A stretch of DNA of 32,000 nucleotides from NCBI GenBank assembly GCA_963706795.1, contig OY970170.1:810001-842000 (forward strand). Reading direction: 5' to 3'. Each line of letters opens with the position of its first letter. Position 1 is the stretch's first letter. Shown here piece by piece: positions 18,551-30,616 of this stretch. The notes below the pieces were generated by a model that was not told the DNA's origin, did not search any database, and worked only from the letters and a program-made list of their open reading frames with translations. The stretch comes from Candidatus Saccharimonadota bacterium (GTDB taxonomy: Bacteria > Patescibacteriota > Gracilibacteria > BD1-5 > UBA2023). The position numbers and the translations under genes are program-made.

Positions 18551-19420
18551 TTATTCTGTGAGTCCCATTTTTCAGGCCTTAAGATCCTTAAATGCTTGCA
18601 TAATTTCCTCGTGGGTATTCATCACGAATGGTCCGTATTGTGCGATCGGCTCATCAAGTGGCTGTCCGGCCATGATGAGTACCTTTGCGGCTCCGTCTGC
18701 ACTGATGACGATGTTGCTGCCATCTTTTGAGAGATAGGCCATATCGCCATTTGCGAGAACTTTTCCATCTGCGGTTTTCACTGATCACTCTACAACGAGC
18801 ATCATTGTGTTATAGCCTTCGGTGCTTTTTATCTCGAGTGATCCGGCTTGATCAAATCGTACGTCATAGAGCTCAACCGGACTAAAGGTCGTTGCAGCTC
18901 ACTTCGTACCATTAAAATTACCAGCGATGACGCGGACTTTTCAGCTATCGAATGCAACCTCAGGAATACTCTGGCGCGTGAGTGCTTGGTATTTTGGGGT
19001 AGTCATCTTGTGCGACTTTGGGAGATTGACCCAGAGTTGGACGGCGTGTTGTGTTCCACCCATTCGAGCGAATTCTGCAGTCATGAACTCATTATGGAGA
19101 AGTCCACTTCCGGCAGTCATCCACTGGACTTCGTCATATCCAATAACGCCTCAGTTTCCGGCGGTGTCCTGGTGTTCTACTTCTCCAGAATACACGATCG
19201 TGACCGTCTCAAATCCACGATGTGGATGAAATCCAACTCCTGGACGATGATCACTTGGATCAATCTTCCATGGCGCGTTGTAGTCGAGCATGAGGAATGG
19301 GCTCGTGTCATTATTCATTTCACGACCATAGCCTGGAATATATTGTGATACACGAAATCCGTCACCAACCATGTGTTGTCCGGTTGGATGCTCGATATGT
19401 GTGATGTGTTTTGTCGTCAT
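18551..19420 (-). CDS. Pirin family (bicupin) protein
   Basis: Minus-strand ATG at 19420. Track ORFs 19151-19420 and 18572-18781 are joined with the intervening frame by five TGAs (19151, 18941, 18899, 18785, 18572), ending at TAA 18551-18553. Motifs are [38 protein letters not shown] and [26 protein letters not shown]. Confidence 0.88.
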
Positions 19421-19441
19421 AATTACGTTTTAGTGTCTGGT

Positions 19442-20044
19442 TTATGCGAGATAGGTATCTATCTCGGCTTTGATTTTTTCGGTATTTGCAGGGAGATTTG
19501 TGGCATCTGCATTTACACCCTGGAGTGAGAATGTCTTGATATTCATGATCCCAACAAACTGGAGTAGTTTTGTGAGGTGTGGAGTCACGAGGTCGTAGGC
19601 ATCATATGGAGCTGAGGTATAGCTTCCTCCGCTTGCCCAAATAATGGTAGCTTTTTGGATTTTAGTAACGAGTCCTTCGTAGCCGTTTGCTCCGATTTTA
19701 AAAGTTACATTTACCTTGATGATGAGATCAAAATATGCCTTGAGCACTGCAGGAACTCCAAAATTCCACATAGGAGTTGAGATAACAATCTCATCTGCCG
19801 AAACGAGTTGATCAATGAATTTTTGTTGTGCATCAGCAATCTTTTTGTCTGTATCCGTGAGTGATTCGTAGGTTGCAAATCCGTAGTTATAAGCAATCAT
19901 CTGTTCGCTCATATAGGGGACAAAGGAAGTTGTAAGATCTAATTCCTCAACTTCGCCTTGGAGTTTTGAAGTGAAGTACTTACCAATTTCGAGAGACTTT
20001 GATCGACTTCCACGTGGCGATGCGATTATGTGAAGTGTTTTCAT
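19442..20044 (-). CDS. azoR: FMN-dependent NADH-azoreductase / flavodoxin-like quinone reductase
   Basis: ATG at 20044 (MKTLHIIASPRGSRSKS...) lies within track ORF 19442-20101. Motifs are ADEIVISTPMWNFGVPAVLKAYFDLI, TFKIGANGYEGLV and KATIIWASGGSY. No in-frame TGA. Confidence 0.75.
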   Translation of the reverse strand: MKTLHIIASPRGSRSKSLEIGKYFTSKLQGEVEELDLTTSFVPYMSEQMIAYNYGFATYESLTDTDKKIADAQQKFIDQLVSADEIVISTPMWNFGVPAVLKAYFDLIIKVNVTFKIGANGYEGLVTKIQKATIIWASGGSYTSAPYDAYDLVTPHLTKLLQFVGIMNIKTFSLQGVNADATNLPANTEKIKAEIDTYLA

Positions 20045-20131
20045 AGTTATTGTTTTAAAATTAAAGTGAGTATACTTTAGCAAGTAATTTAGTATATTCA
20101 AATCTCAAGCAGTTACTAAAAAACAACCAAT

Positions 20132-20446
20132 ATGTCCGAAACAAACAAACCCTGCGCCGTCCTTAACATTTTCGTCCTTCTTTCAAAGCGATGGACGTTT
20201 CTTATTATCAAAAGCCTCTCCGAATGAGCGGATACGTTCTCAGATATTAGCCGTTCACGTCCAGGAATCAGTTCTCGAATTCTCTCTGAGCGCCTCAAAG
20301 AACTCGAAGTCGAAGGCTTCATAAGTCGCGATGTCATCTCACTTCAGCCCATTAAAATTCGCTACAGTTTGACCGAAAAATGACATTCCTTTGGGACGTG
20401 CATGGAGTCGCTCGCTACTTGGCAGAAGCAATGGTGAACAAAATAA
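20132..20446 (+). CDS. HxlR-family winged-helix transcriptional regulator
   Basis: ATG 20132 to TAA 20444-20446 with three in-frame TGAs. The sequence CAVLNIFVLLSKRWTFLIIKSLSE-G-ADTFSDISRSRPGISSRILSERLKELEVEGFISRDV...IRYSLTEK-G- fits the HxlR pattern, with TGA 20381-20383 on the conserved LTEKG glycine. It is divergent from the azoR-pirin pair. Confidence 0.85.
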
Positions 20447-20475
20447 AAATACCCCGCTCGAGCGGGGTATTTTTA
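20447..20475. terminator. Bidirectional palindromic terminator hairpin
   Basis: AAAATACCCCGCTCGAGCGGGGTATTTTTA is a perfect palindrome centred on CTCGAG and flanked by A/T runs. It lies between the HxlR stop and the stop (20473-20475) of the convergent 623-aa gene. Confidence 0.75.
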
Positions 20476-22344
20476 TGCAGTAATTTCATCAGCAGTTTTA
20501 GCGAGTGTATTTCCGTGTTTTTCGTAGAGTGCGTGGTAGTTTTCGACAAACGCGCGATTTGTCTCGTCTTTTGGGAGGAAATATTTCCCATGCTTCACCA
20601 CATGTTCTCCGAGGAAAACCGAAGCATCTTCTTTTGCGAGGTATCGATCAACGAGGTCTTCATAGCGCTCAATATAGAGATCTCATAGTTTCTTAAAGGT
20701 CTCTTCGTTGTAATTGAGTACGATCTGGCCTTGTTCATTAAAGCTGATCATTCCAGAATCACGCAAGAGTTCAAGATGGATGAGTCATTCGACGTAGTAG
20801 GGCACAGCTGCGTCGACCTTCATCCAGTCAATTGTTCGGATAATGCGACTCACATGAATCACGATCAGTTCGCGTTGTATCTTTGGATCTGGATTTAAGA
20901 AAAATGCAACGAATCCCCCAGCAGTTGCTTTCCATTCTTCTACATTTTGGAAATTACCACTTTTGTTCATAGTGATTTCCGTGTCGTTATCGAGCCAGAG
21001 AGTGTGACCAAACTCATGTCCGTGAGTCATGACATCATTGATTTCGTAGAACGCAGTCGGATCCTCTGCATGGAGAATTGCTTCTCGCTCTTGCAGGAGG
21101 GAAGCCTCTGTGACTAATTGCTTTGCGAGCGTGAGCCGTCCAGCCTTATACATCTCATGCACATGTTTCAAGAATGAAAATATCTTGATCCCATGAGACT
21201 TCTTTACAACCGTATCATTTGGTACCACCTGTGCAGCAGGAAGTCCTGTCATATCTGCTCCATAGTACGTAGCTGGTGCAGTGACATAGAGATAAGATCG
21301 AGCAAGATTTTCGATCGAAGTAATGCTCACCGGATGATCCTTCGTGAGGCCTTTTTTTGTAGCGATATTCTCAAACATAGAGACTATGTTTGCTTTTACA
21401 TGTGATGAGAAGAGCTGCTTGCTCTCGAGACGCATACTCCATTGGAGTGCTACAGCATTGCGATATATATCTTCGTATGCTTCAAGCGGATGAGACGGCT
21501 GAAAAGGCCCAGTAATTGCCATCCACTTACGATCAACTTCTGCCCATCGCTCGACGAGTTTATCGGTATCTGTTTCCGTAAAGGCATTCTGAATGGCTGT
21601 GAAGTATTCGATATACGCCACCTTTTGGTCGTAGATATCATCCTCTAAGACGAGAAGTTTGCTTATGCAGTCAGCAGTTGTTCGCTGAATTGCTCAAACT
21701 TCCTGAGGGAAAGCCTCAGAATATGCTTTTTTCTCATAGCCGCCTTCAGTTTTTACAAGTGCCGAATACGAGCGATCTGCTTGCTCGCCTCCGTGCCCCT
21801 TATCAAAGAGATTATTTGCTGTGAGGTGATCAATAACTGCTCACATATCACTCTTAAAAAGTTTATCGAGTTCAGCATTTACCCCGAGGACAATGTGGTT
21901 ATTCCATTTTTTATGAAACTCATTCATCACGAGGCCAATATTGTGTACTCCTTTAAAGAGCTCAAGATAGTAGGGCGTGAGGAGATTTTCAGATTCGATC
22001 TTGGCAATAAGCTCGGCGTGCAAATTGCTGTGGTGCTCGGCTGTAAAATTAAATGCCTTCTCAATAATCGCATTTTTAGTTTCTGTAGCTACGTCCTTAT
22101 GCTCATTAAAATGATTCTGCAGAGGATCATCCCGCAAACTCGTGAGACGTATGTAGGCAATATATCGTGTCTTGTCATTTTTCTCTAGACCAACTGCATC
22201 TAAAAAGACATTGAGGAAATCCTGCTCTGGCCCAGCTTTGTCGATGCCAACATTGAGCGCATGGAGCTGTTTTTCGCGTTCATCGATATGTTTTTGAATC
22301 TTGCCGATACTTCCTTCCATCTCGGCTGCAGTTAGTGGGCCCAT
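20473..22344 (-). CDS. Hypothetical 623-aa protein with an HEXXH zinc-metallopeptidase-like motif
   Basis: Minus-strand ATG at 22344. Track ORFs 21841-22344 and 20785-21621 share a frame and are joined with flanking segments by TGAs at 21841, 21694, 20785 and 20683, ending at TAA 20473-20475. The motif is VMTHGHEFGHTLWLD, with Glu-Glu (NVEEWKAT) about 22 residues after the second His. Family assignment (M3-like?) is uncertain. Confidence 0.6.
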
Positions 22345-22559
22345 GGGAAGCTATATAAGAATTACAAATTCGAAGAAGTATAGGCAGATCGATCGCGCAC
22401 TCAAATGAATTCACTCTTATTTTTAATAAACAGTCGACAAAGGCTAATTATACCTTAAACTTTTCACCTTCTTCGCAAGAAGACAGTCCCACATTTCATG
22501 AGCATTTCCTTGGATTTTTTTGAGGTCTGCTCTGATTACTTTTCTAAACTTGATAGCCT

Positions 22560-25346
22560 ATGCGAATTTCTTCCATTGCATCCATCCTCCTATCATTCCT
22601 CCTTCCATTTTCTACATTTGCTGTCGGCATTCAGGGGTCTTCGACCGCCTCAGGTGACTGGGGAAGCGGATTTTGCCAAAAAATCTCACTCGCCAATACC
22701 GAAAGCACTTCTCAAAGTTGGTCTGAGATTCGTTTTACGCTCAAAAATGCCAAGATTACAAACTCTTGGAATGGAGTATTTACATCGGCCAATGATGTCT
22801 ATACCATCAAACCCGTCGCCTGGAATAATCCCATCGCTGCAGGTCAGTCGATCGATATTGGATACTGTGGAGAAGGTTCCGGCCGTCCTATAGATATCGA
22901 TGTAGTTGGTGGTTCGTCTTCTACAAATCCTACAACTCCTCCAGTTATTCGTCCTGCACCAGTACATCTCGTCAAGGACGCACTTACTCTCGATGCTACC
23001 GTCAATGACTGGCAAACAGGGTACTGCCGTACAATCACACTCAAAAATACTGGTACAGCTGCACTCTCAAATTGGAAATTTGCATTCGACAGTACTGCCA
23101 CCATGAATCTCTGGTCAGGGAAAGTTACTAAAGCAGGTAATACTGTTACTGTGACTCCCGAAGCTTGGAATGGAAGTATTACCCCAAATGGAGTTGTTGA
23201 GCTCGGATTTTGTGCCGATGGTACGACATCCGACTCTAATTGGAATCTCCTCGGAAGTGACTCAGGTCCTATTATCCCAACTCCCACTCCCACAAATGGA
23301 AGCTGTGGTGCTGACAATGGGAAAGCACTGAGTAATACTCCTGTAAATCTCTGTAGCGCAGGCTCGGCGACTAATGTTTCTGGCAATGGTCCATGGGCAT
23401 GGTCATGTCTCGGACAGAATGGAGGCTCTAATGCTTCGTGTTCTGCGACAAAATCAGTGACTCCACCAAATCCAGTCAATGGATCATGTGGATCAGACAA
23501 CGGCAAGACGCTCGACACACCACCAACTGCACTCTGTATTGCAGGTACAGCATCTAATGTATCAGGAAACGGACCATGGTCATGGTCATGTAATGGTCAG
23601 AATGGTGGATCAAGTGCAACATGTGCCGCAAATAAGTCTCAGGTAACACCTCCAAATAACAGCGGAGCACTCATCTACACGATCGATGCTAACAAAAACC
23701 GCTCAGCTATTAGTCCATATATCTACGGACGCAATTTTGGAGATGGAAATACTGAAAACTTCGATGCGATGCGTCTCGGAGGAAATCGTCTCACAGGTTA
23801 CAACTGGGAAAACAATGCCTCAAATGCCGGTTCTGACTGGAATCATTCAAGTGACAGCTATCTCGGTGACAGCAATGTTCCAGGGAAGACCGTTACTGAT
23901 TTCCATGACAAAAATCGGAGTCTCGGCGTGGCATACTCACTCGTGACTATGCCAATGGCTGGCTATGTAGCTCGCGACAAGAACGGAACAGTCAACCAAA
24001 ACGAAACCGCTCCATCAAATCGATGGGATGATGTAGTGGTTGCAAAAAATAGTGCATTTTCGCTCACGCCAAATCTCACAGACGGACATGTCTACAGCGA
24101 TGAATTCATCAATTTCCTCGTAAATAAATACGGCAAAGCCAACACCGCAACCGGTATCAAAGGCTACGCACTCGACAATGAACCAGCTCTTTGGACATCC
24201 ACTCATTCACGACTTCATCCAAATAAGGTCACAGTCTCCGAGATGATTACCCGCAGTACTGCACTCTCCAAGGCAATCAAAGCCGTCGATGCTACTGCCG
24301 AAATCTTTGGTGCGGTTACCTATGGATTTGGAGAACACTACAATCTCCAAGATGCTCCGGATTGGTCAAATTACTCATCGACATACGCAACGTATATCGA
24401 TGCCTTCCTTGCAAATCTCAAATCTGCAAGCGATACTCAGGGGAAGCGTCTTCTCGACGTTCTTGATATCCACTGGTATCCAGAAGCACAGGGAACAACT
24501 CTTGCTGGTAACAAAGTCCGCATCCTCGAAAATAACTCGGATCCTGATGTGGCTCGCGCTCGAATGCAGGCACCACGATCACTCTGGGATCCAACATATC
24601 GCGAAGACAGCTGGATCGGACAGTGGTATGCAAGTACTGCGTTCCCACTCATTCCAAAGCTCAAGGCTTCGATCGATCGCTACTACCCAGGAACGAAGCT
24701 CGCCATCACCGAATTTGATTACGGAGGAAATAACCATATCTCAGGTGGTATTGCCACAGCTGATGTCCTCGGTATCTATGGGAAGTACGGAGTATATTTC
24801 TCAAGCTATTGGGGAAATGTAGATGGATATGTTTCAAGCGCCTACAAACTCTACCGCAATGTTGATGGAGCAAATACAACATTCGGAGATACTGAAATCG
24901 ACGCGACAAATCCTGATATCGAAAATACCTCTATCTACGCCTCTACTGAGGGCGCTGGTGGTAAGGCTCACGTCATTCTCATCAACAAGAAAAATACACC
25001 AGTAAACATCCATCTCAATCTTGCGAATATCACGGCAAACAAGGCTGATGTCTACGGATTTGATGCTACAAATACAGCTATTACTAAGCGAGCCTCGGTA
25101 AATGTGGGTGCAAACGGACTGGATTATACTCTTCCTGCGCTCACTGCGGTTCACCTTATTTTTGCTGGTACTTCTACAACTGTTGCACCGACAACGATTG
25201 CGCCAAAGGTTACTACGACTACCGTCCCAGTGACACAGACTACCAAGACAGTTACTCCCGCGGCAGTGATTACTCCCGCAGTAACCACTGTGAAAAAACC
25301 GGTTAAAAAGGTTATTATCAAAAAACCAAAGGTAGTGAAGCCATAA
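22560..25346 (+). CDS. Secreted glycoside hydrolase family 44 (endoglucanase/xyloglucanase-type) with two N-terminal CBM2-like modules, two Cys-rich ~61-aa repeats and a Thr/Pro/Lys-rich tail
   Basis: Intact 928-aa track ORF with signal peptide MRISSIASILLSFLLPFSTFA. CBM2-like pattern: GDWGSGFCQKISLAN...W...F.L....ITNSWNG...WNNPIAAGQSIDIGYCG, and a second copy NDWQTGYCRTITLKN.... GH44-like catalytic strings: MRLGGNRLTGYNWENNASNAGSDWNHSSD, YALDNEPALWTSTHSRLHP, LDVLDIHWYPEA, LAITEFDYGG. No in-frame TGA. Confidence 0.85.
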   Translation: MRISSIASILLSFLLPFSTFAVGIQGSSTASGDWGSGFCQKISLANTESTSQSWSEIRFTLKNAKITNSWNGVFTSANDVYTIKPVAWNNPIAAGQSIDIGYCGEGSGRPIDIDVVGGSSSTNPTTPPVIRPAPVHLVKDALTLDATVNDWQTGYCRTITLKNTGTAALSNWKFAFDSTATMNLWSGKVTKAGNTVTVTPEAWNGSITPNGVVELGFCADGTTSDSNWNLLGSDSGPIIPTPTPTNGSCGADNGKALSNTPVNLCSAGSATNVSGNGPWAWSCLGQNGGSNASCSATKSVTPPNPVNGSCGSDNGKTLDTPPTALCIAGTASNVSGNGPWSWSCNGQNGGSSATCAANKSQVTPPNNSGALIYTIDANKNRSAISPYIYGRNFGDGNTENFDAMRLGGNRLTGYNWENNASNAGSDWNHSSDSYLGDSNVPGKTVTDFHDKNRSLGVAYSLVTMPMAGYVARDKNGTVNQNETAPSNRWDDVVVAKNSAFSLTPNLTDGHVYSDEFINFLVNKYGKANTATGIKGYALDNEPALWTSTHSRLHPNKVTVSEMITRSTALSKAIKAVDATAEIFGAVTYGFGEHYNLQDAPDWSNYSSTYATYIDAFLANLKSASDTQGKRLLDVLDIHWYPEAQGTTLAGNKVRILENNSDPDVARARMQAPRSLWDPTYREDSWIGQWYASTAFPLIPKLKASIDRYYPGTKLAITEFDYGGNNHISGGIATADVLGIYGKYGVYFSSYWGNVDGYVSSAYKLYRNVDGANTTFGDTEIDATNPDIENTSIYASTEGAGGKAHVILINKKNTPVNIHLNLANITANKADVYGFDATNTAITKRASVNVGANGLDYTLPALTAVHLIFAGTSTTVAPTTIAPKVTTTTVPVTQTTKTVTPAAVITPAVTTVKKPVKKVIIKKPKVVKP

Positions 25347-25355
25347 AGGAACTAT

Positions 25356-25402
25356 AAAAAATCCCCTCCGAAACTCGCAAGAGTGAAGGAGGGGATTTTT
25401 TA
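25356..25402. terminator. Bidirectional terminator hairpin shared by GH44 and the convergent PRTase-like gene
   Basis: AAAAAATCCCCTCC (25356-25369) pairs with GGAGGGGATTTTTT (25388-25401) around an 18-nt loop that holds an inner ACTC/GAGT stem, with an A-run upstream and a T-run downstream. Confidence 0.7.
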
Positions 25403-25471
25403 TTTGGGTTCTTCTTCGTCTTGAGAATATTTTGTAGTGAATATCTTATAGAGTCGATTTCAAGTAATGGT

Positions 25472-26296
25472 TCACATGAGCTCTTTGTATCGTGCCTTTT
25501 CTTTATTTACGATAGTTTTGTGTGAGTAGGTGCCTGCTCGAGCAATGATATCGAGTTTTTGTTCGTCAGTAAGCGACGATTTGTACTTACTCAGGTCTAT
25601 GTTTGCACGACAGACGAATACAAAAATCTGACTGTAGTAACCAGTGGATTCTGCGAGTTTTCGCAGATCATCAAGCGTCTCACCACTGTGTGTATTGTCA
25701 TCAAAAATGAGTAGCCAGTTCTTCTTTTTGATCTTTTCTTTAATTTCTCCTTCGATGGTAGTGTCGCGTAATACTTCAGAAAATGGATAGTCTGTGAGTT
25801 CCGAAAAATTGTTCGCATTTTCTACGTCATAGAGTGAGTACACGATATTTCCGCTATTGATAAGCACTTGTCCATTTTTTATCACATGTGTGAAGCTTTG
25901 CTTGGCGAAGAGTCCCGTGAGCGTTCCACCATAATTCACGCCCATGATATGTAACACGTGTTCTAGAGGGTTATAACCAGCTTCTATTATTGTATTGAGC
26001 GCGTTCTGACCTGTTCGCATCATGACAAGTGGATCGTTTTCTTCCCTATAGAGACGAATGAGTTTTTTATAAGCGATACCCTTAATGATTTCTGCATCAG
26101 CTTTTTTTACTTTTGGTGCTGAACCATAGTTATCGATCAGCCGGAGAAGTGCGCGTAGTAACTCTAGTCCATCGCTCAAATCTGCACGCATGGAAGGATC
26201 TTTTCCTGCAGTGACTTCAGCGATGTCATTAGGGAGATCTCCAATGATTTTTATATAGGCTGCTGATTTTTTTCAAATGAGAATGTCCGTATACAT
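25472..26296 (-). CDS. Phosphoribosyltransferase (type I PRT)-like domain protein
   Basis: Track ORF 25472-26191 extended to the first in-frame ATG (26296); the start is uncertain, and the frame stays open up to the TAA at 26426-26428. The PRPP-loop-like signature is NWLLIFDDNTHSGETLDDL (hydrophobic x4-DD-x-x-x-SG-x-T), with an upstream IMGVNYGGTLTGLFA. Confidence 0.65.
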
Positions 26297-26425
26297 TTCT
26301 GTATAACTATCGAGTAGCGTTGTTAATCATTGATTACCTTTAAAACCAATCAGTTGTTTCTGTAGCTCTTTGAATTTTTTGAATGCTTCTGGGACTTTGT
26401 TTTTTATCTGTTGGACGTGAACATT

Positions 26426-27547
26426 TTTAAATACCAGACTTCATTTGTACTCAGGATTGAGGAATTGTTCGCTGTACATAATCTGCGAAGTATTCTGCAA
26501 AAATGCGAGCATATTTATTTTTGCATCAAGAAGTCCAAGCAAGAGTTTTTGCATGGATTTTGGTAAATTCGTCTGAACATTCTGATTGATAATCTCATTG
26601 ATATCAATCCCAAATACGGCTCTTGCATAGGTTATGGAGCTATTTTCTCTTCCAATAAACTCTATAAAATGTAAGGCTGCATCATAGATCTCACGATGAG
26701 CTCATCTTGCAATAACATTTTTTAGATTACTCGCAATGTAATACAAATGCTCCAAAACACCGATCACCTGCGGAACATATTCGGTCTGAAATGCATCTAG
26801 TTTTGGGTGACCAATAAAGTTTGCAGGAGCGTCAGCACGCTCTTTGATATGCTGCATTCTTTTAGGGGAAAGAGTCTGAATAAGCGTATCAATAAATTTT
26901 GAATCTTTGTCGATAATCTCATTCATAAGCGATCACATAACCTGCGTGCTGTGGCACTTTAAATGCTGATCAATCGAATTATAGTGCTTTAAAAAATCGG
27001 TAATGAACTCATCTGTCTCTACGTCGATAACCTTATAAGAATTGACCGACTGAGATCGATTAATTTCCGCAATACTCACGCTCGGGAAAAGAAAATAGTA
27101 TTTTTCATTTCTAAATATGAGCTTTAAAGATTTTTCTTTGCTGAGACTAGACTTTAGATAACCAAAATCATCTATAAATTCTGTCATATATTGCTGAAGG
27201 AATCCTTCATCCATGATTGATCAGCCGTTTTTTGGATCAAGGATATACATGAGCTTCTCGAGTTCTGCTAAGTCATCCTTATTAAAACTGATGGCACCAT
27301 CCACATAAAAATATTCTTTAAGCACCTCACGAATATCAGGCTCAAGAAATATTTTGTCTATCTCTGATTTCTTCTCAAGTATACGTTCCAGTCGTTCTTG
27401 GATATTTAAGTGTGAATGCGCCTGCTTGGATTGTTCATATCTTTGAATATATTTTTCCGACATAAGATCGGATGCCATAAAAATATCTTCTGCACCAAGA
27501 GGCCTTCCATCATCTGTTCCATTGATCACTACACTATAATTTTTCAT
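26426..27547 (-). CDS. Hypothetical 373-aa protein with no recognisable motif
   Basis: Minus-strand ATG at 27547. Track ORFs 27221-27547, 26933-27214 and 26702-26926 share a frame and are joined by TGAs at 27221, 26933, 26702 and 26450. It ends at TAA 26426-26428. The ATG is 1 nt after the upstream DUF2809 stop. Confidence 0.65.
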
Positions 27548-27548
27548 A

Positions 27549-27917
27549 CTATTTTTTCGTTATAGAATCCAACCCCACACATGCAACTCCACCAACTACA
27601 TACGCCACCAAATCCATCAGATCAAATGTTGAGCCAAAAATAATCATGATCCATCTGTGCTCACTGAGTCATAATATTTGAGCCACATGCATGCCCTGAG
27701 CGCATTCCAAAATAATTCCAATTATCACGCATCCCATCGCGATTTTCCAGGCTTCATATCGGATAAAAGTCCGGAAAAGACTATAGAGAAGTATGATGGC
27801 GAATACGTCTCATAAAAATGGCCTAACAATGCTATCATGTACAAAAACTGCTATACAAATTTCGAGCAGCAGGAGACTTAAAAACCCCATGAAATAACGT
27901 ATATCAAAGTGTTTCAT
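27549..27917 (-). CDS. DUF2809-like small integral membrane protein
   Basis: Not in the ORF track because two TGAs break it. Minus-strand ATG at 27917 to TAG 27549-27551. The sequence is MKHFDIRYFMGFLSLLLLEICIAVFVHDSIVRPFL-G-DVFAIILLYSLF ... LECAQG ... IFGSTFDLMDLVAYVVGG. The IVRPxxGD, E..Q and GxTFDxxDLxAY strings match my recollection of DUF2809. Confidence 0.6.
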
Positions 27918-27926
27918 GGGGTTTTT
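27880..27926. terminator. 15-bp perfect hairpin, terminator-like, that encloses the DUF2809 start codon
   Basis: AAAAACCCCATGAAA (27880-27894) pairs with TTTCATGGGGTTTTT (27912-27926) around a 17-nt loop. On the minus-strand mRNA the 5' arm contains AUG 27917-27915 and the 3' arm contains the second in-frame AUG, followed by a U-run. It lies 16 nt downstream of the HD-GYP stop. Confidence 0.6.
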
Positions 27927-27941
27927 AGATTGGTGAGAGGA

Positions 27942-28610
27942 TTATTTTTTCATGTCCAGTTCGATAATTTCTGGAAGGCACATATCGAACGCTTCTACGC
28001 ATTCTGGGCAGAACATTTTGCCACTATTGAGATGCATAAAATCCATGGTCGCATCAATATCGACGGATGGTTTATATATTCTCTTTTCTCGCAGGGCATC
28101 AAATACATCCGCAATACTTACAATCCGAGAGGCTTGCGAGATTTCCAAACCTTTTAGTCACTGTGGATAACCAGTGCCATCATATTTTTCGTGATGCGTA
28201 CGAGCGACATCAGCTGCGTATTTTATGATTGGCCATTTAGCAATGAGTGTATCACTTTCGAGAATACGGGCTCATTTTTCGGAATGCTCTTCCATGATTT
28301 TTTGCTCATCAGGATCAAGTCTTCCATTTTTGCGGAGTATCGCATCGGGAATGGCTATTTTGCCGATATCATGAAGCGCAGCAGCAATTCAAAGTGCGGC
28401 ATTTATTTCGCTACACAGTCCGAGCACCTTTCAGATTTTCATGGCGATAACACTCACGCGTGTCGCATGAGATCCAGTATCGCTATCACGATACTCCATA
28501 GTGACCATGAGTGTGTGCAATACGGCCTCGCGTAGTTTTTTAGAAGATTGACTCTCTTGCTCGAGCTTCCGAGTAAGTAGGGATCAGCGTAATTCATTCA
28601 GAGCCAGCAT
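27942..28610 (-). CDS. Stand-alone HD-GYP domain phosphodiesterase
   Basis: Minus-strand ATG at 28610. Track ORF 27942-28148 extends upstream through five TGAs (28158, 28272, 28389, 28431, 28584). Motifs are YRDSDTGSHATRVS, AAALHDIGKIAIPDAILRKNGRL, HHEKYDGTGYPQ-(TGA 28158-28160)-LKG (the HHExxDGxGYPxGL signature) and IADVFDALREKRIYK. Confidence 0.88.
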
Positions 28611-28679
28611 ATAAGAAAGGTGAGATTTGCTTCAGAAAAAGCCATTCTCATTATCTTAATGGAGAATATTAATTATTTA

Positions 28680-29123
28680 TTAATTCTCTTGAATGTTTTT
28701 TGAAGTCACCTTGCGCATATCTGCCAAAATAGATGCTGTGACGTCTTGCGGAAGCTCTTCCTTTGCAAAAGGGGAGTAGTTGCCTGTTGGACGAGGATCA
28801 GTAAAAATATGGTCGCAGTATTTAATAGATGCATTTCGTCGTGGAATGAGATGCACATGGAGATGATTCCAGTCATTTCAAAAAATCGCGATATTCTCGC
28901 GGTCAAATGGCGCTACTTGGTTCAGATTCTTCTTCCAATTTGGAATAATGACATCAAAGAGCTCATCTCGTTCGCTTGGCGTCATGTCGGTCGCAAAATC
29001 AGCATCTTCTCTCACGGCTGCTGCATAACAGCGACCAAGATAGGGTGATTGGTTTTGCTGGAGATAGAGATTCCAGTGAGTATAACGCGCAATCAAATAT
29101 GCTTCGTAGGGATCGTTGAACAT
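28680..29123 (-). CDS. HIT (histidine triad) family protein
   Basis: Minus-strand ATG at 29123. Track ORF 28878-29123 continues through TGA 28878-28880 to TAA 28680-28682. The histidine-triad motif is NDWNHLHVHLIPRR (HxHxHxx). Confidence 0.75.
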
Positions 29124-29196
29124 GAATTCTAGACAACAAATATGCTATTTTGAATGTATCCCGAATCCTATTTTTGCATAAAAATTAATCAAAAAA

Positions 29197-29610
29197 CTAC
29201 TTTCTCTCACGTGCTTCTCGTGTAAGCAGTTTGTTAATAGCTATACGTGTAAATTCTTTTGCTTGTTCTTCATGCTCTGGGTTGATTTTGTGTGGTGACA
29301 TTGGAGCAGTGAATTGGCCTCCAACAGATTCAATTAAATCAGTCAAATGCTTTGATCCTACTGTAGTTCATACAAGCCATTGTACCATTCCCGAAATCAG
29401 CTCAGCCTCCCGCGCAGATGTCGTAGCTCCGAGAATATTATCGAGTGCAACGCGAGGTTCACCTTGTCCTCTGAGATAGAGCATCTTGAGCCATCTGTCA
29501 GCAACAGCACGCTCGAGAGAATCTTCTTCTAAAACTCGCGCTTGTGTTTTTCTATTTCAAAGATGCGCAGTGATAGGATAGCCGGATCCTGGCTTATTGG
29601 GGCTAGACAT
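29197..29610 (-). CDS. Hypothetical protein (137 aa)
   Basis: Not in the ORF track. Minus-strand ATG at 29610 to TAG 29197-29199, open with two in-frame TGAs. It starts MSSPNKPGSGYPITAHL-G-NRKTQARVLEEDSLERAV... and ends with the basic tail LLTREARERK. No motif recognised. Confidence 0.45.
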
Positions 29611-30196: not shown

Positions 30197-30616
30197 CTAA
30201 AACTTTACAATCTCTACAAGATCGTGGCAGACTTTTTGCTCAATGCCCGCTGTATCTAAAATCCCAAAAGTTCACACAAAGTGGACTTTATTTTTTTGTG
30301 TGTAACCAGAAGTCACGAGATCAATATTGATTCGGCCGTAGCGCTTGTCGTCATGGTGGTACCAAAAGACGCAGTTTACAATCATCTGCTCGCCAAGCTC
30401 AGTATCTGTGAGTCGTATCTTGATGTTCGTGTTTCCAGGAATCGCAGAATCCACAACAAAATGCTTGGTCTGTATCGCTTCGAATGTTTCTTCGAGTTTG
30501 TCGATAAGCTTTGCAAGTTCTGCCTTAAAATTTCAGGCGAACATGACTTTTGACTTGATGGGCGCGACGCGCATGTCGCCCATATTGAGGGCATATTTGA
30601 GGAGATTTGGCGCCAT
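30197..30616 (-). CDS. Hypothetical protein (139 aa)
   Basis: Minus-strand ATG at 30616. The frame includes track ORF 30272-30454 and passes TGAs at 30533 and 30272 to TAG 30197-30199. The start is uncertain, since the frame is open up to 30706. No confident motif. Confidence 0.45.

Follow-up and report, generated by a model that had tools for sequence, protein, structure and literature searches.

Gene Structure and Genetic Code

The window, i.e., the 32,000-nucleotide (nt) stretch of DNA analysed here, comes from the genome of a Candidatus Saccharimonadota bacterium (assembly GCA_963706795.1, contig OY970170.1, positions 810,001 to 842,000 of the forward strand) and contains a compact block of minus-strand genes between 25.4 and 28.6 kb. 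In the initial annotation, this block was described as a tightly packed cassette of four co-oriented genes encoding an HD-GYP phosphodiesterase, a DUF2809 membrane protein, an uncharacterised protein of 373 amino acids (aa), and a protein resembling phosphoribosyltransferases (PRTs). The co-orientation holds, but the count does not. The block comprises three genes instead of four, and the one of particular interest here encodes a 715-aa protein with a C-terminal PRT fold in its structural model.

The genome reads TGA as glycine (translation table 25). With table 11, the minus strand of the block falls into short fragments, while table 25 yields three clean open reading frames (ORFs) of 222, 122, and 715 aa. 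In particular, the 715-aa gene P0001 (25400..27547, minus strand) contains eight sense TGA codons and, with TGA read as glycine, runs uninterrupted from position 27547 to a TAA at 25400-25402. Three of its TGA-encoded residues, Gly369, Gly692, and Gly696, sit on invariant glycine columns in an alignment of six full-length sequences, which supports the assignment of TGA to glycine; tryptophan was rejected as the meaning of TGA because TGA positions coincide with conserved glycines. Moreover, in the HD-GYP protein the glycine directly after GYPQ is encoded by TGA. This residue is a conserved glycine of the HD-GYP motif.

The 373-aa protein is nonexistent as a separate product. The codon that had been taken for its TAA stop, codon 374 counted from the ATG at 27547 (26428-26426), reads AAA in the context GTA TTT AAA, and a TAA near 26426-26428 sits one base out of frame. 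Position 25472, which had been given as the 3' limit of the block, is a sense TGA (Gly692), at which all six aligned sequences have glycine; the true stop is the TAA at 25400-25402. Relatives of about 699-735 aa align end to end with the 715-aa protein (34-44% identity) and thus span both of the parts that had been separated. As the frame is open under table 25 and full-length relatives exist, the 715-aa ORF is a single gene. Hence, a one-base reading slip and an alternative genetic code together produced a gene cassette that does not exist.

The Phosphoribosyltransferase Fold and the N-Terminal Region

The confident AlphaFold model of the 715-aa protein (predicted local distance difference test score, pLDDT, 84; predicted template modelling score, pTM, 0.89) contains a C-terminal type I PRT fold at residues 504-692 (25472..26038, minus strand), with the parallel β-sheet flanked by helices that defines the core of this fold. 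The signature of a phosphoribosyl pyrophosphate (PRPP) loop reported in the initial annotation, LLIFDDNTHSGETL, is present. The PRPP-type loop LLIFDDNTHSGET at residues 612-624 (25676..25714, minus strand) is the predicted 5-phosphoribosyl binding site and shows the expected order of a hydrophobic strand, two acidic residues, and then x-x-x-[ST]-G-x-[ST]. Residues D616, D617, N618, and T624 are invariant in 29 of 29 sequences, and hhalign superimposes the family loop on its PRPP-binding counterparts in Pseudomonas Hpt and Apt. The invariant residues Y570, S571, Y573, D574, and N577 fall where the pLDDT drops below 50, in a stretch that, judging from the model, may resemble the mobile catalytic loop of PRTs. 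Near the presumed site, R498, R501, E502, E503, and D574 are likewise invariant in all 29 sequences and R647 is nearly so. Thus, the initial description of a PRTase-like protein with a long, non-canonical N-terminal extension was correct as regards the loop, but not in assigning it to a gene of its own, as it forms part of the 715-aa protein.

The N-terminal region, residues 1-503 (26039..27547, minus strand), consists of a small β element at approx. residues 80-176, followed by long helical bundles. The β element contains invariant residues in the motifs VDGAI, FR..YYF, and S.N, and the bundles carry a conserved LGLLDAKIN.LAF.QN motif. No solved fold was matched by this helical part of approx. 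500 residues. Several structural alignments with PRTs, for which only the first and last aligned residues are reported, begin at model residues 81-84. This gives a hint that the β element might complete the PRT "hood" and that the helices might constitute a large insertion.

A Rare and Scattered Family

The 715-aa protein has no significant model match in Pfam, NCBIfam, or PADLOC. In particular, the Pribosyltran model (PF00156) does not match P0001 even at E-values up to 1, and a sequence search of the PDB with the family profile returned no PRT at E-values up to 10, but only noise. Among 1.84 billion representative proteins, 43 relatives were identified by exhaustive HMMER searching, including three table-11 fragments of the window gene itself. 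The named relatives come from Raoultella and Serratia, and every one is annotated as a "hypothetical protein"; no mention of the accession numbers of family members was found in the papers searched. A search of the ESM Atlas with the Serratia homologue returned unnamed clusters and one lead, at 0.87, to a cluster of which 43% is Pribosyltran.

Clustering with housekeeping PRTs, which the initial annotation had named as an outcome that would speak against its proposal, is not seen. A housekeeping PRT was rejected as an identification, given that the Pribosyltran model misses the protein and that the Pseudomonas homologue lies outside the 11 canonical PRT (PF00156) genes of its own genome.

The family is represented twice in the genome studied here, by the window gene and by a paralogue (44% identity) that lies 409 kb farther along. 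Neither the 400 genomes sampled from the phylum nor the 30 close relatives searched, which include the same genus, yielded a family member. Among 301 sampled genomes of the genus to which the Pseudomonas fluorescens carrier belongs, only one has a family member. In a quick maximum-likelihood tree, the window copy groups with the paralogue and other TGA-recoded lineages (Shimodaira-Hasegawa-like approximate likelihood ratio test, SH-aLRT, 88), and the proteobacterial sequences form a separate clade (SH-aLRT 97). The GC content of the 715-aa gene is 37%, compared with 43% for the window. TGA encodes 8 of its 39 glycines, which indicates that the gene has long been adapted to the code of its host; it is an old accessory gene and not a recent import. 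Taken together, the family is rare, patchy, horizontally scattered, and uncharacterised, with full-length members of about 700-735 aa.

Two shorter forms were also observed. A 567-aa form (L006:9737-11440) occurs in a low-GC, TGA-recoded Patescibacteria genome; it lacks approx. residues 195-330 of the helical region, and the gene shows as two adjacent matches in the genome search. The second is a 319-aa ORF on a different contig (L023:9551-10510), 477 bp from a GGDEF-EAL gene. It starts like a GntR/UTRA-type regulator and its last approx. 150 residues match only family residues 560-713; hence, it is probably a truncated remnant.

Adjacent Genes and Transcription Units

Upstream of the 715-aa gene lie the DUF2809 gene P0002 (27549..27917, minus strand, 122 aa; PF10990 at 7.6e-19) and the HD-GYP gene P0003 (27942..28610, minus strand, 222 aa; HD_5, PF13487, at 3.3e-32), and both initial identifications are borne out. 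P0003 combines the HD_5 profile with HDIGK and HHEKYDGTGYPQGL motifs, in agreement with the HD and HHExxDGxGYP motifs by which HD-GYP phosphodiesterases are recognised. It is the only HD_5 gene of the 1.27-Mb genome, which carries three GGDEF genes elsewhere; therefore, no neighbours are needed to explain its presence. By its motifs, P0003 is most simply an ordinary stand-alone cyclic-di-GMP phosphodiesterase, which cyclic-di-GMP turnover would account for.

A 2025 analysis assigns DUF2809 proteins to the Skillet branch of the Lipocone superfamily and predicts them to be membrane enzymes acting on lipid head groups (PMC12419801). The pathways predicted for Skillet-DUF2809 proteins are those of isoprenoid lipids and exopolysaccharides, and the branch is characterised by ExxQ in helix 3 and by an aspartate three residues before the aspartate of helix 4 (PMC12419801). 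P0002 contains both features, as ECAQ and DLMD (DxxD). It is thus a predicted Lipocone-type envelope membrane enzyme, and a neighbour rather than a conserved partner of the 715-aa gene.

The strong bidirectional hairpin that had been placed at the 3' end of the block was found at 25352..25403 (both strands). It starts at the TAA stop of the 715-aa gene and serves as a two-way terminator hairpin common to this gene and the convergent, plus-strand GH44 gene (ΔG -28.4 kcal/mol on the minus and -31.7 kcal/mol on the plus strand, z -7.3 and -6.1, respectively; 0 of 200 shuffles as good). A second strong hairpin of approx. 16 bp, followed by a U-run, lies at 27880..27926 on the minus strand (ΔG -20.4 kcal/mol, z -4.9; again matched by none of 200 shuffles), where it separates the HD-GYP stop from DUF2809 and extends over the DUF2809 start codon. 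It looks like the terminator of the HD-GYP gene, and therefore the block is not simply one tight operon, contrary to the initial description of a single packed cassette. Its role might be a dual one, ending HD-GYP transcription and blocking the translation of DUF2809. The second in-frame AUG of DUF2809 (codon 10) lies inside the 3' arm of this hairpin; translation probably begins at the first AUG, since the homologue from the same genus aligns from residue 4. The DUF2809 stop and the ATG of the 715-aa gene are one base apart, as had been noted, and the two genes probably share a transcript. Both hairpins were overlooked by a simple terminator scan because their loops are longer than its limit. 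A search of positions 25000-29500 against Rfam returned nothing above threshold, and the sub-threshold matches were the two hairpins only.

The conservation of the supposed cassette was assessed at 21 homologue loci, namely, the window, the paralogue of the same genome, four genome contigs, and 15 metagenome contigs, by all-against-all BLASTP of the genes within 8 kb. No neighbour family is shared among these loci, save for duplicate contigs and chance pairs, and neither HD-GYP nor DUF2809 was seen beside any of the 20 other homologues. Moreover, the paralogue stands alone between strong hairpins (z -6.3 and -4.4). In a genome of the same genus (91% complete), the DUF2809 gene adjoins a homologue of the window ORF 30197-30616, and the searches found no member of the 715-aa family and no HD-GYP gene. 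A failure of the genes to occur together in other genomes had been named in the initial annotation as the first outcome that would refute its proposal. As no neighbour recurs across the 21 loci, the cassette idea fails, and the locus is a juxtaposition of three unrelated genes.

It is very improbable that the HD-GYP, DUF2809, and PRT-like proteins nevertheless cooperate in a single nucleotide- or cyclic-nucleotide-centred system. Such a system would fit the co-orientation of the genes, the single base between DUF2809 and the 715-aa gene, an HD-GYP/DUF2809 gap with no evident space for another promoter, and the absence of both HD-GYP and the 715-aa gene from 30 of 30 relatives searched; nucleotide-handling genes also occur near some homologues (HD_4 and NUDIX in L006, GGDEF-EAL in L004 and L023). 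However, it is at odds with the failure of either partner to recur, the terminator-like hairpin that parts HD-GYP from DUF2809, the different neighbour of DUF2809 within the genus, the monocistronic paralogue, and the three GGDEF genes, which suffice to explain HD-GYP.

The surroundings of the block also vary within the genus. In the same-genus genome (G401 contigs C4 and C23; L054, L055), GH44 lies in tandem between the DUF7897 gene and a homologue of ORF 18551-19420; in the window (18551-25346), GH44 is inverted and flanks DUF7897 on its opposite side. Gene order to the right of DUF7897 has therefore been rearranged within the genus.

Genomic Neighbourhoods and Possible Function

At some loci, the family occurs in neighbourhoods rich in defence genes. 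The paralogue adjoins genes for a GNAT protein, a type I HsdR, and a CBASS cyclase with a 2TM effector. In P. fluorescens PS858 (L004), the family gene is followed after 0.6 kb by a complete Azaca system (ZacA 1.5e-86, ZacB 3e-108, ZacC 2e-251). In L014, Dsr1/SIR2 is encoded 435 bp downstream of the family gene; in L006, type I R and S subunits are encoded nearby; and in L011, the family gene is located beside a transposase. L017, a near-identical metagenome copy of the Pseudomonas gene (branch lengths approx. 0.04-0.05), has another large gene in the Azaca position. In a comparison of L004:12115-18865 with L017:2543-8472, the cargo downstream of the family gene is Azaca in L004 and a 1400-aa protein without a Pfam match in L017, and the site beside these homologues looks like a variable hot spot.

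Other genes near family members were recorded as well. Upstream of the L006 family gene are an HD_4 gene, a NUDIX gene, and an uncharacterised 215-aa gene. In L004 (8492-9109), the Pseudomonas homologue is preceded, at 0.7 kb, by the gene of a 205-aa P-loop protein weakly similar to thymidylate kinase (5e-8); no other family member was seen with such a neighbour. For 95 further neighbours, the PADLOC annotation covers the 25 most frequent families.

The reading that we tentatively favour, plausible though somewhat short of probable, is that the 715-aa protein is a stand-alone accessory enzyme that acts on PRPP or nucleotides, possibly in defence. The family would spread horizontally and work as a self-contained accessory gene, its C-terminal domain would bind and turn over PRPP or a nucleotide, and the N-terminal part would gate this PRT domain. 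The gene might act against phages by upsetting the nucleotide supply of the infected cell, as ShosT and Retron-Eco11 do. A more specific proposal, which we consider possible but rather doubtful, is that the family represents a new single-gene anti-phage system, common to bacteria that read TGA as glycine and to Proteobacteria with the standard code, in which a helical sensor restrains a divergent PRT-fold enzyme until infection, whereupon PRPP or nucleotides are consumed.

The proximity to defence genes is suggestive. The four loci concerned are those of the paralogue (CBASS and type I restriction-modification), the Pseudomonas copy (Azaca), L014 (Dsr1), and L006 (type I restriction-modification); the remaining loci have ordinary or uncharacterised neighbour genes. 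Hence, the link to defence hinted at initially finds some support for the PRT-like gene alone, but not for the cassette.

Several observations weigh against an enzyme with a role in defence. A recognised defence system lies within 5 kb at only 4 of approx. 13 loci with usable flanks, a raw count to which no background rate is attached. The window copy itself is outside any defence island and is surrounded by a cellulase gene, a HIT-like gene, and small uncharacterised genes. The PADLOC check that had been proposed gave no match for P0001 (E-values up to 1) or for the Pseudomonas homologue (E-values up to 0.001), and no relative of the family was found in phage and plasmid records by tblastn or in a scan of viral contigs. 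As to enzymatic activity, the link to PRTs at the sequence level covers only approx. 30 aligned columns (hhalign E 0.03-0.08), the stretch at the position of the pyrophosphate (PPi) loop, VNYGG, contains nothing basic, and the closest match among single structures is PyrR, a protein that also acts as a regulator.

The composition of the PPi loop and the match to PyrR make a non-catalytic binding role possible. As in PurR, the PRT fold would then serve only to bind a ligand (PRPP, a nucleotide, or (p)ppGpp), with the helical part relaying the signal to a target. The equivalent of the catalytic aspartate of hypoxanthine-guanine phosphoribosyltransferase (HGPRT), which varies within the family between Asn, His, Ser, and Cys, agrees with such a sensor. 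However, no DNA- or RNA-binding domain was detected, and both the many invariant charged residues near the presumed site and the conserved disordered loop are more in keeping with an enzyme; a purely sensory role is therefore judged quite unlikely.

An accessory metabolic enzyme is the more credible of these two alternatives, albeit still unlikely: the protein might be a true PRT or PRPP user that serves to salvage or modify an unusual base or small molecule, in a role unrelated to phages. Most contexts of the family are indeed unrelated to defence (prolyl peptidase, aminoacyl-tRNA synthetase, ABC transporter, AAA ATPase, and others), and the window gene, with its eight sense TGA codons, is well adapted to the host code. 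Moreover, nothing in the host genome scores above the Pfam cut-off for Pribosyltran; canonical salvage PRTs are apparently lacking, and the two family copies might make up for this. On the other hand, 430 related genomes with the same reduced metabolism gave no family member, a homologue occurs in a Pseudomonas genome already equipped with 11 canonical PRT genes, no salvage PRT has anything like the 500 additional conserved residues, and no metabolic partner gene is conserved across the 21 loci. The best PF00156 candidate of the 1.27-Mb genome, below that cut-off, is a 247-aa ORF (L029:964-1707) that weakly resembles PRPP synthetase or orotate phosphoribosyltransferase (21.9 bits).

Comparison with Known Systems

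Type I PRTs and PyrR, e.g., Mycobacterium tuberculosis PyrR (1w30) and Trypanosoma cruzi HGXPRT (8fwy), share 10-15% identity with the 715-aa protein. The latter differs in being four times as long, in having VNYGG without Arg or Lys, and in lacking a Pfam Pribosyltran match; in addition, the family is rare and patchy, and hence not housekeeping.

Among defence proteins, ShosT, the toxin of the anti-phage system ShosTA, shows parallels in architecture. It is encoded in defence islands and, like the 715-aa protein, combines a C-terminal PRT fold and PRPP loops with an unusually long flexible loop (PMC11961720). ShosT binds PRPP and disturbs purine metabolism, and shows no activity with common purines (PMC11961720). 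In contrast to the 715-aa family, which has approx. 500 helical N-terminal residues, no conserved partner, and no PADLOC match, ShosT possesses its own N-terminal Rossmann-fold pyrophosphatase domain and depends on ShosA, a DprA-like antitoxin. The scanned neighbours of family members included no gene of the DprA-like kind. ShosTA was therefore rejected as an identification, as there is no PADLOC match and no antitoxin, and the N-terminus is of a different, helical kind.

The effector of type III-A3 retrons is likewise a PRT-fold protein; once triggered, it lowers PRPP and brings about abortive infection, and its PRPP loop is essential (PMC12746101). When triggered, the PRTase-like effector of Retron-Eco11 lowers PRPP by about half (PMC12746101). 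However, this effector needs a reverse transcriptase and a non-coding RNA (ncRNA), and it has a winged-helix domain and a Gx14PNNxP motif. None of these features was found here: the motif is absent from 29 of 29 members of the 715-aa family, and no reverse transcriptase domain is encoded among the window neighbours. Given these two findings and the lack of an Rfam ncRNA match, a retron effector was also rejected.

A third case is Ophion, whose anti-phage defence requires the PRTase-domain protein OpnC (bioRxiv 10.1101/2025.09.30.679545). Ophion differs in being a three-gene system with radical-SAM and PHP enzymes, neither of which adjoins any homologue examined.

PRT-fold effectors are thus an emerging theme of bacterial immunity, represented by ShosT, type III retrons, and Ophion. 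To our knowledge, all known PRT-fold defence effectors need partner genes and are recognisable by sequence. The 715-aa family is a reasonable, if unproven, candidate for a single-gene conflict system. Its occurrence in the culturable genera Raoultella, Serratia, and Pseudomonas makes this proposal directly testable. If the proposal is true, the family would add to ShosT, the retron effectors, and OpnC a stand-alone PRT-fold form with a new regulatory domain that is invisible to current defence finders and to Pfam.

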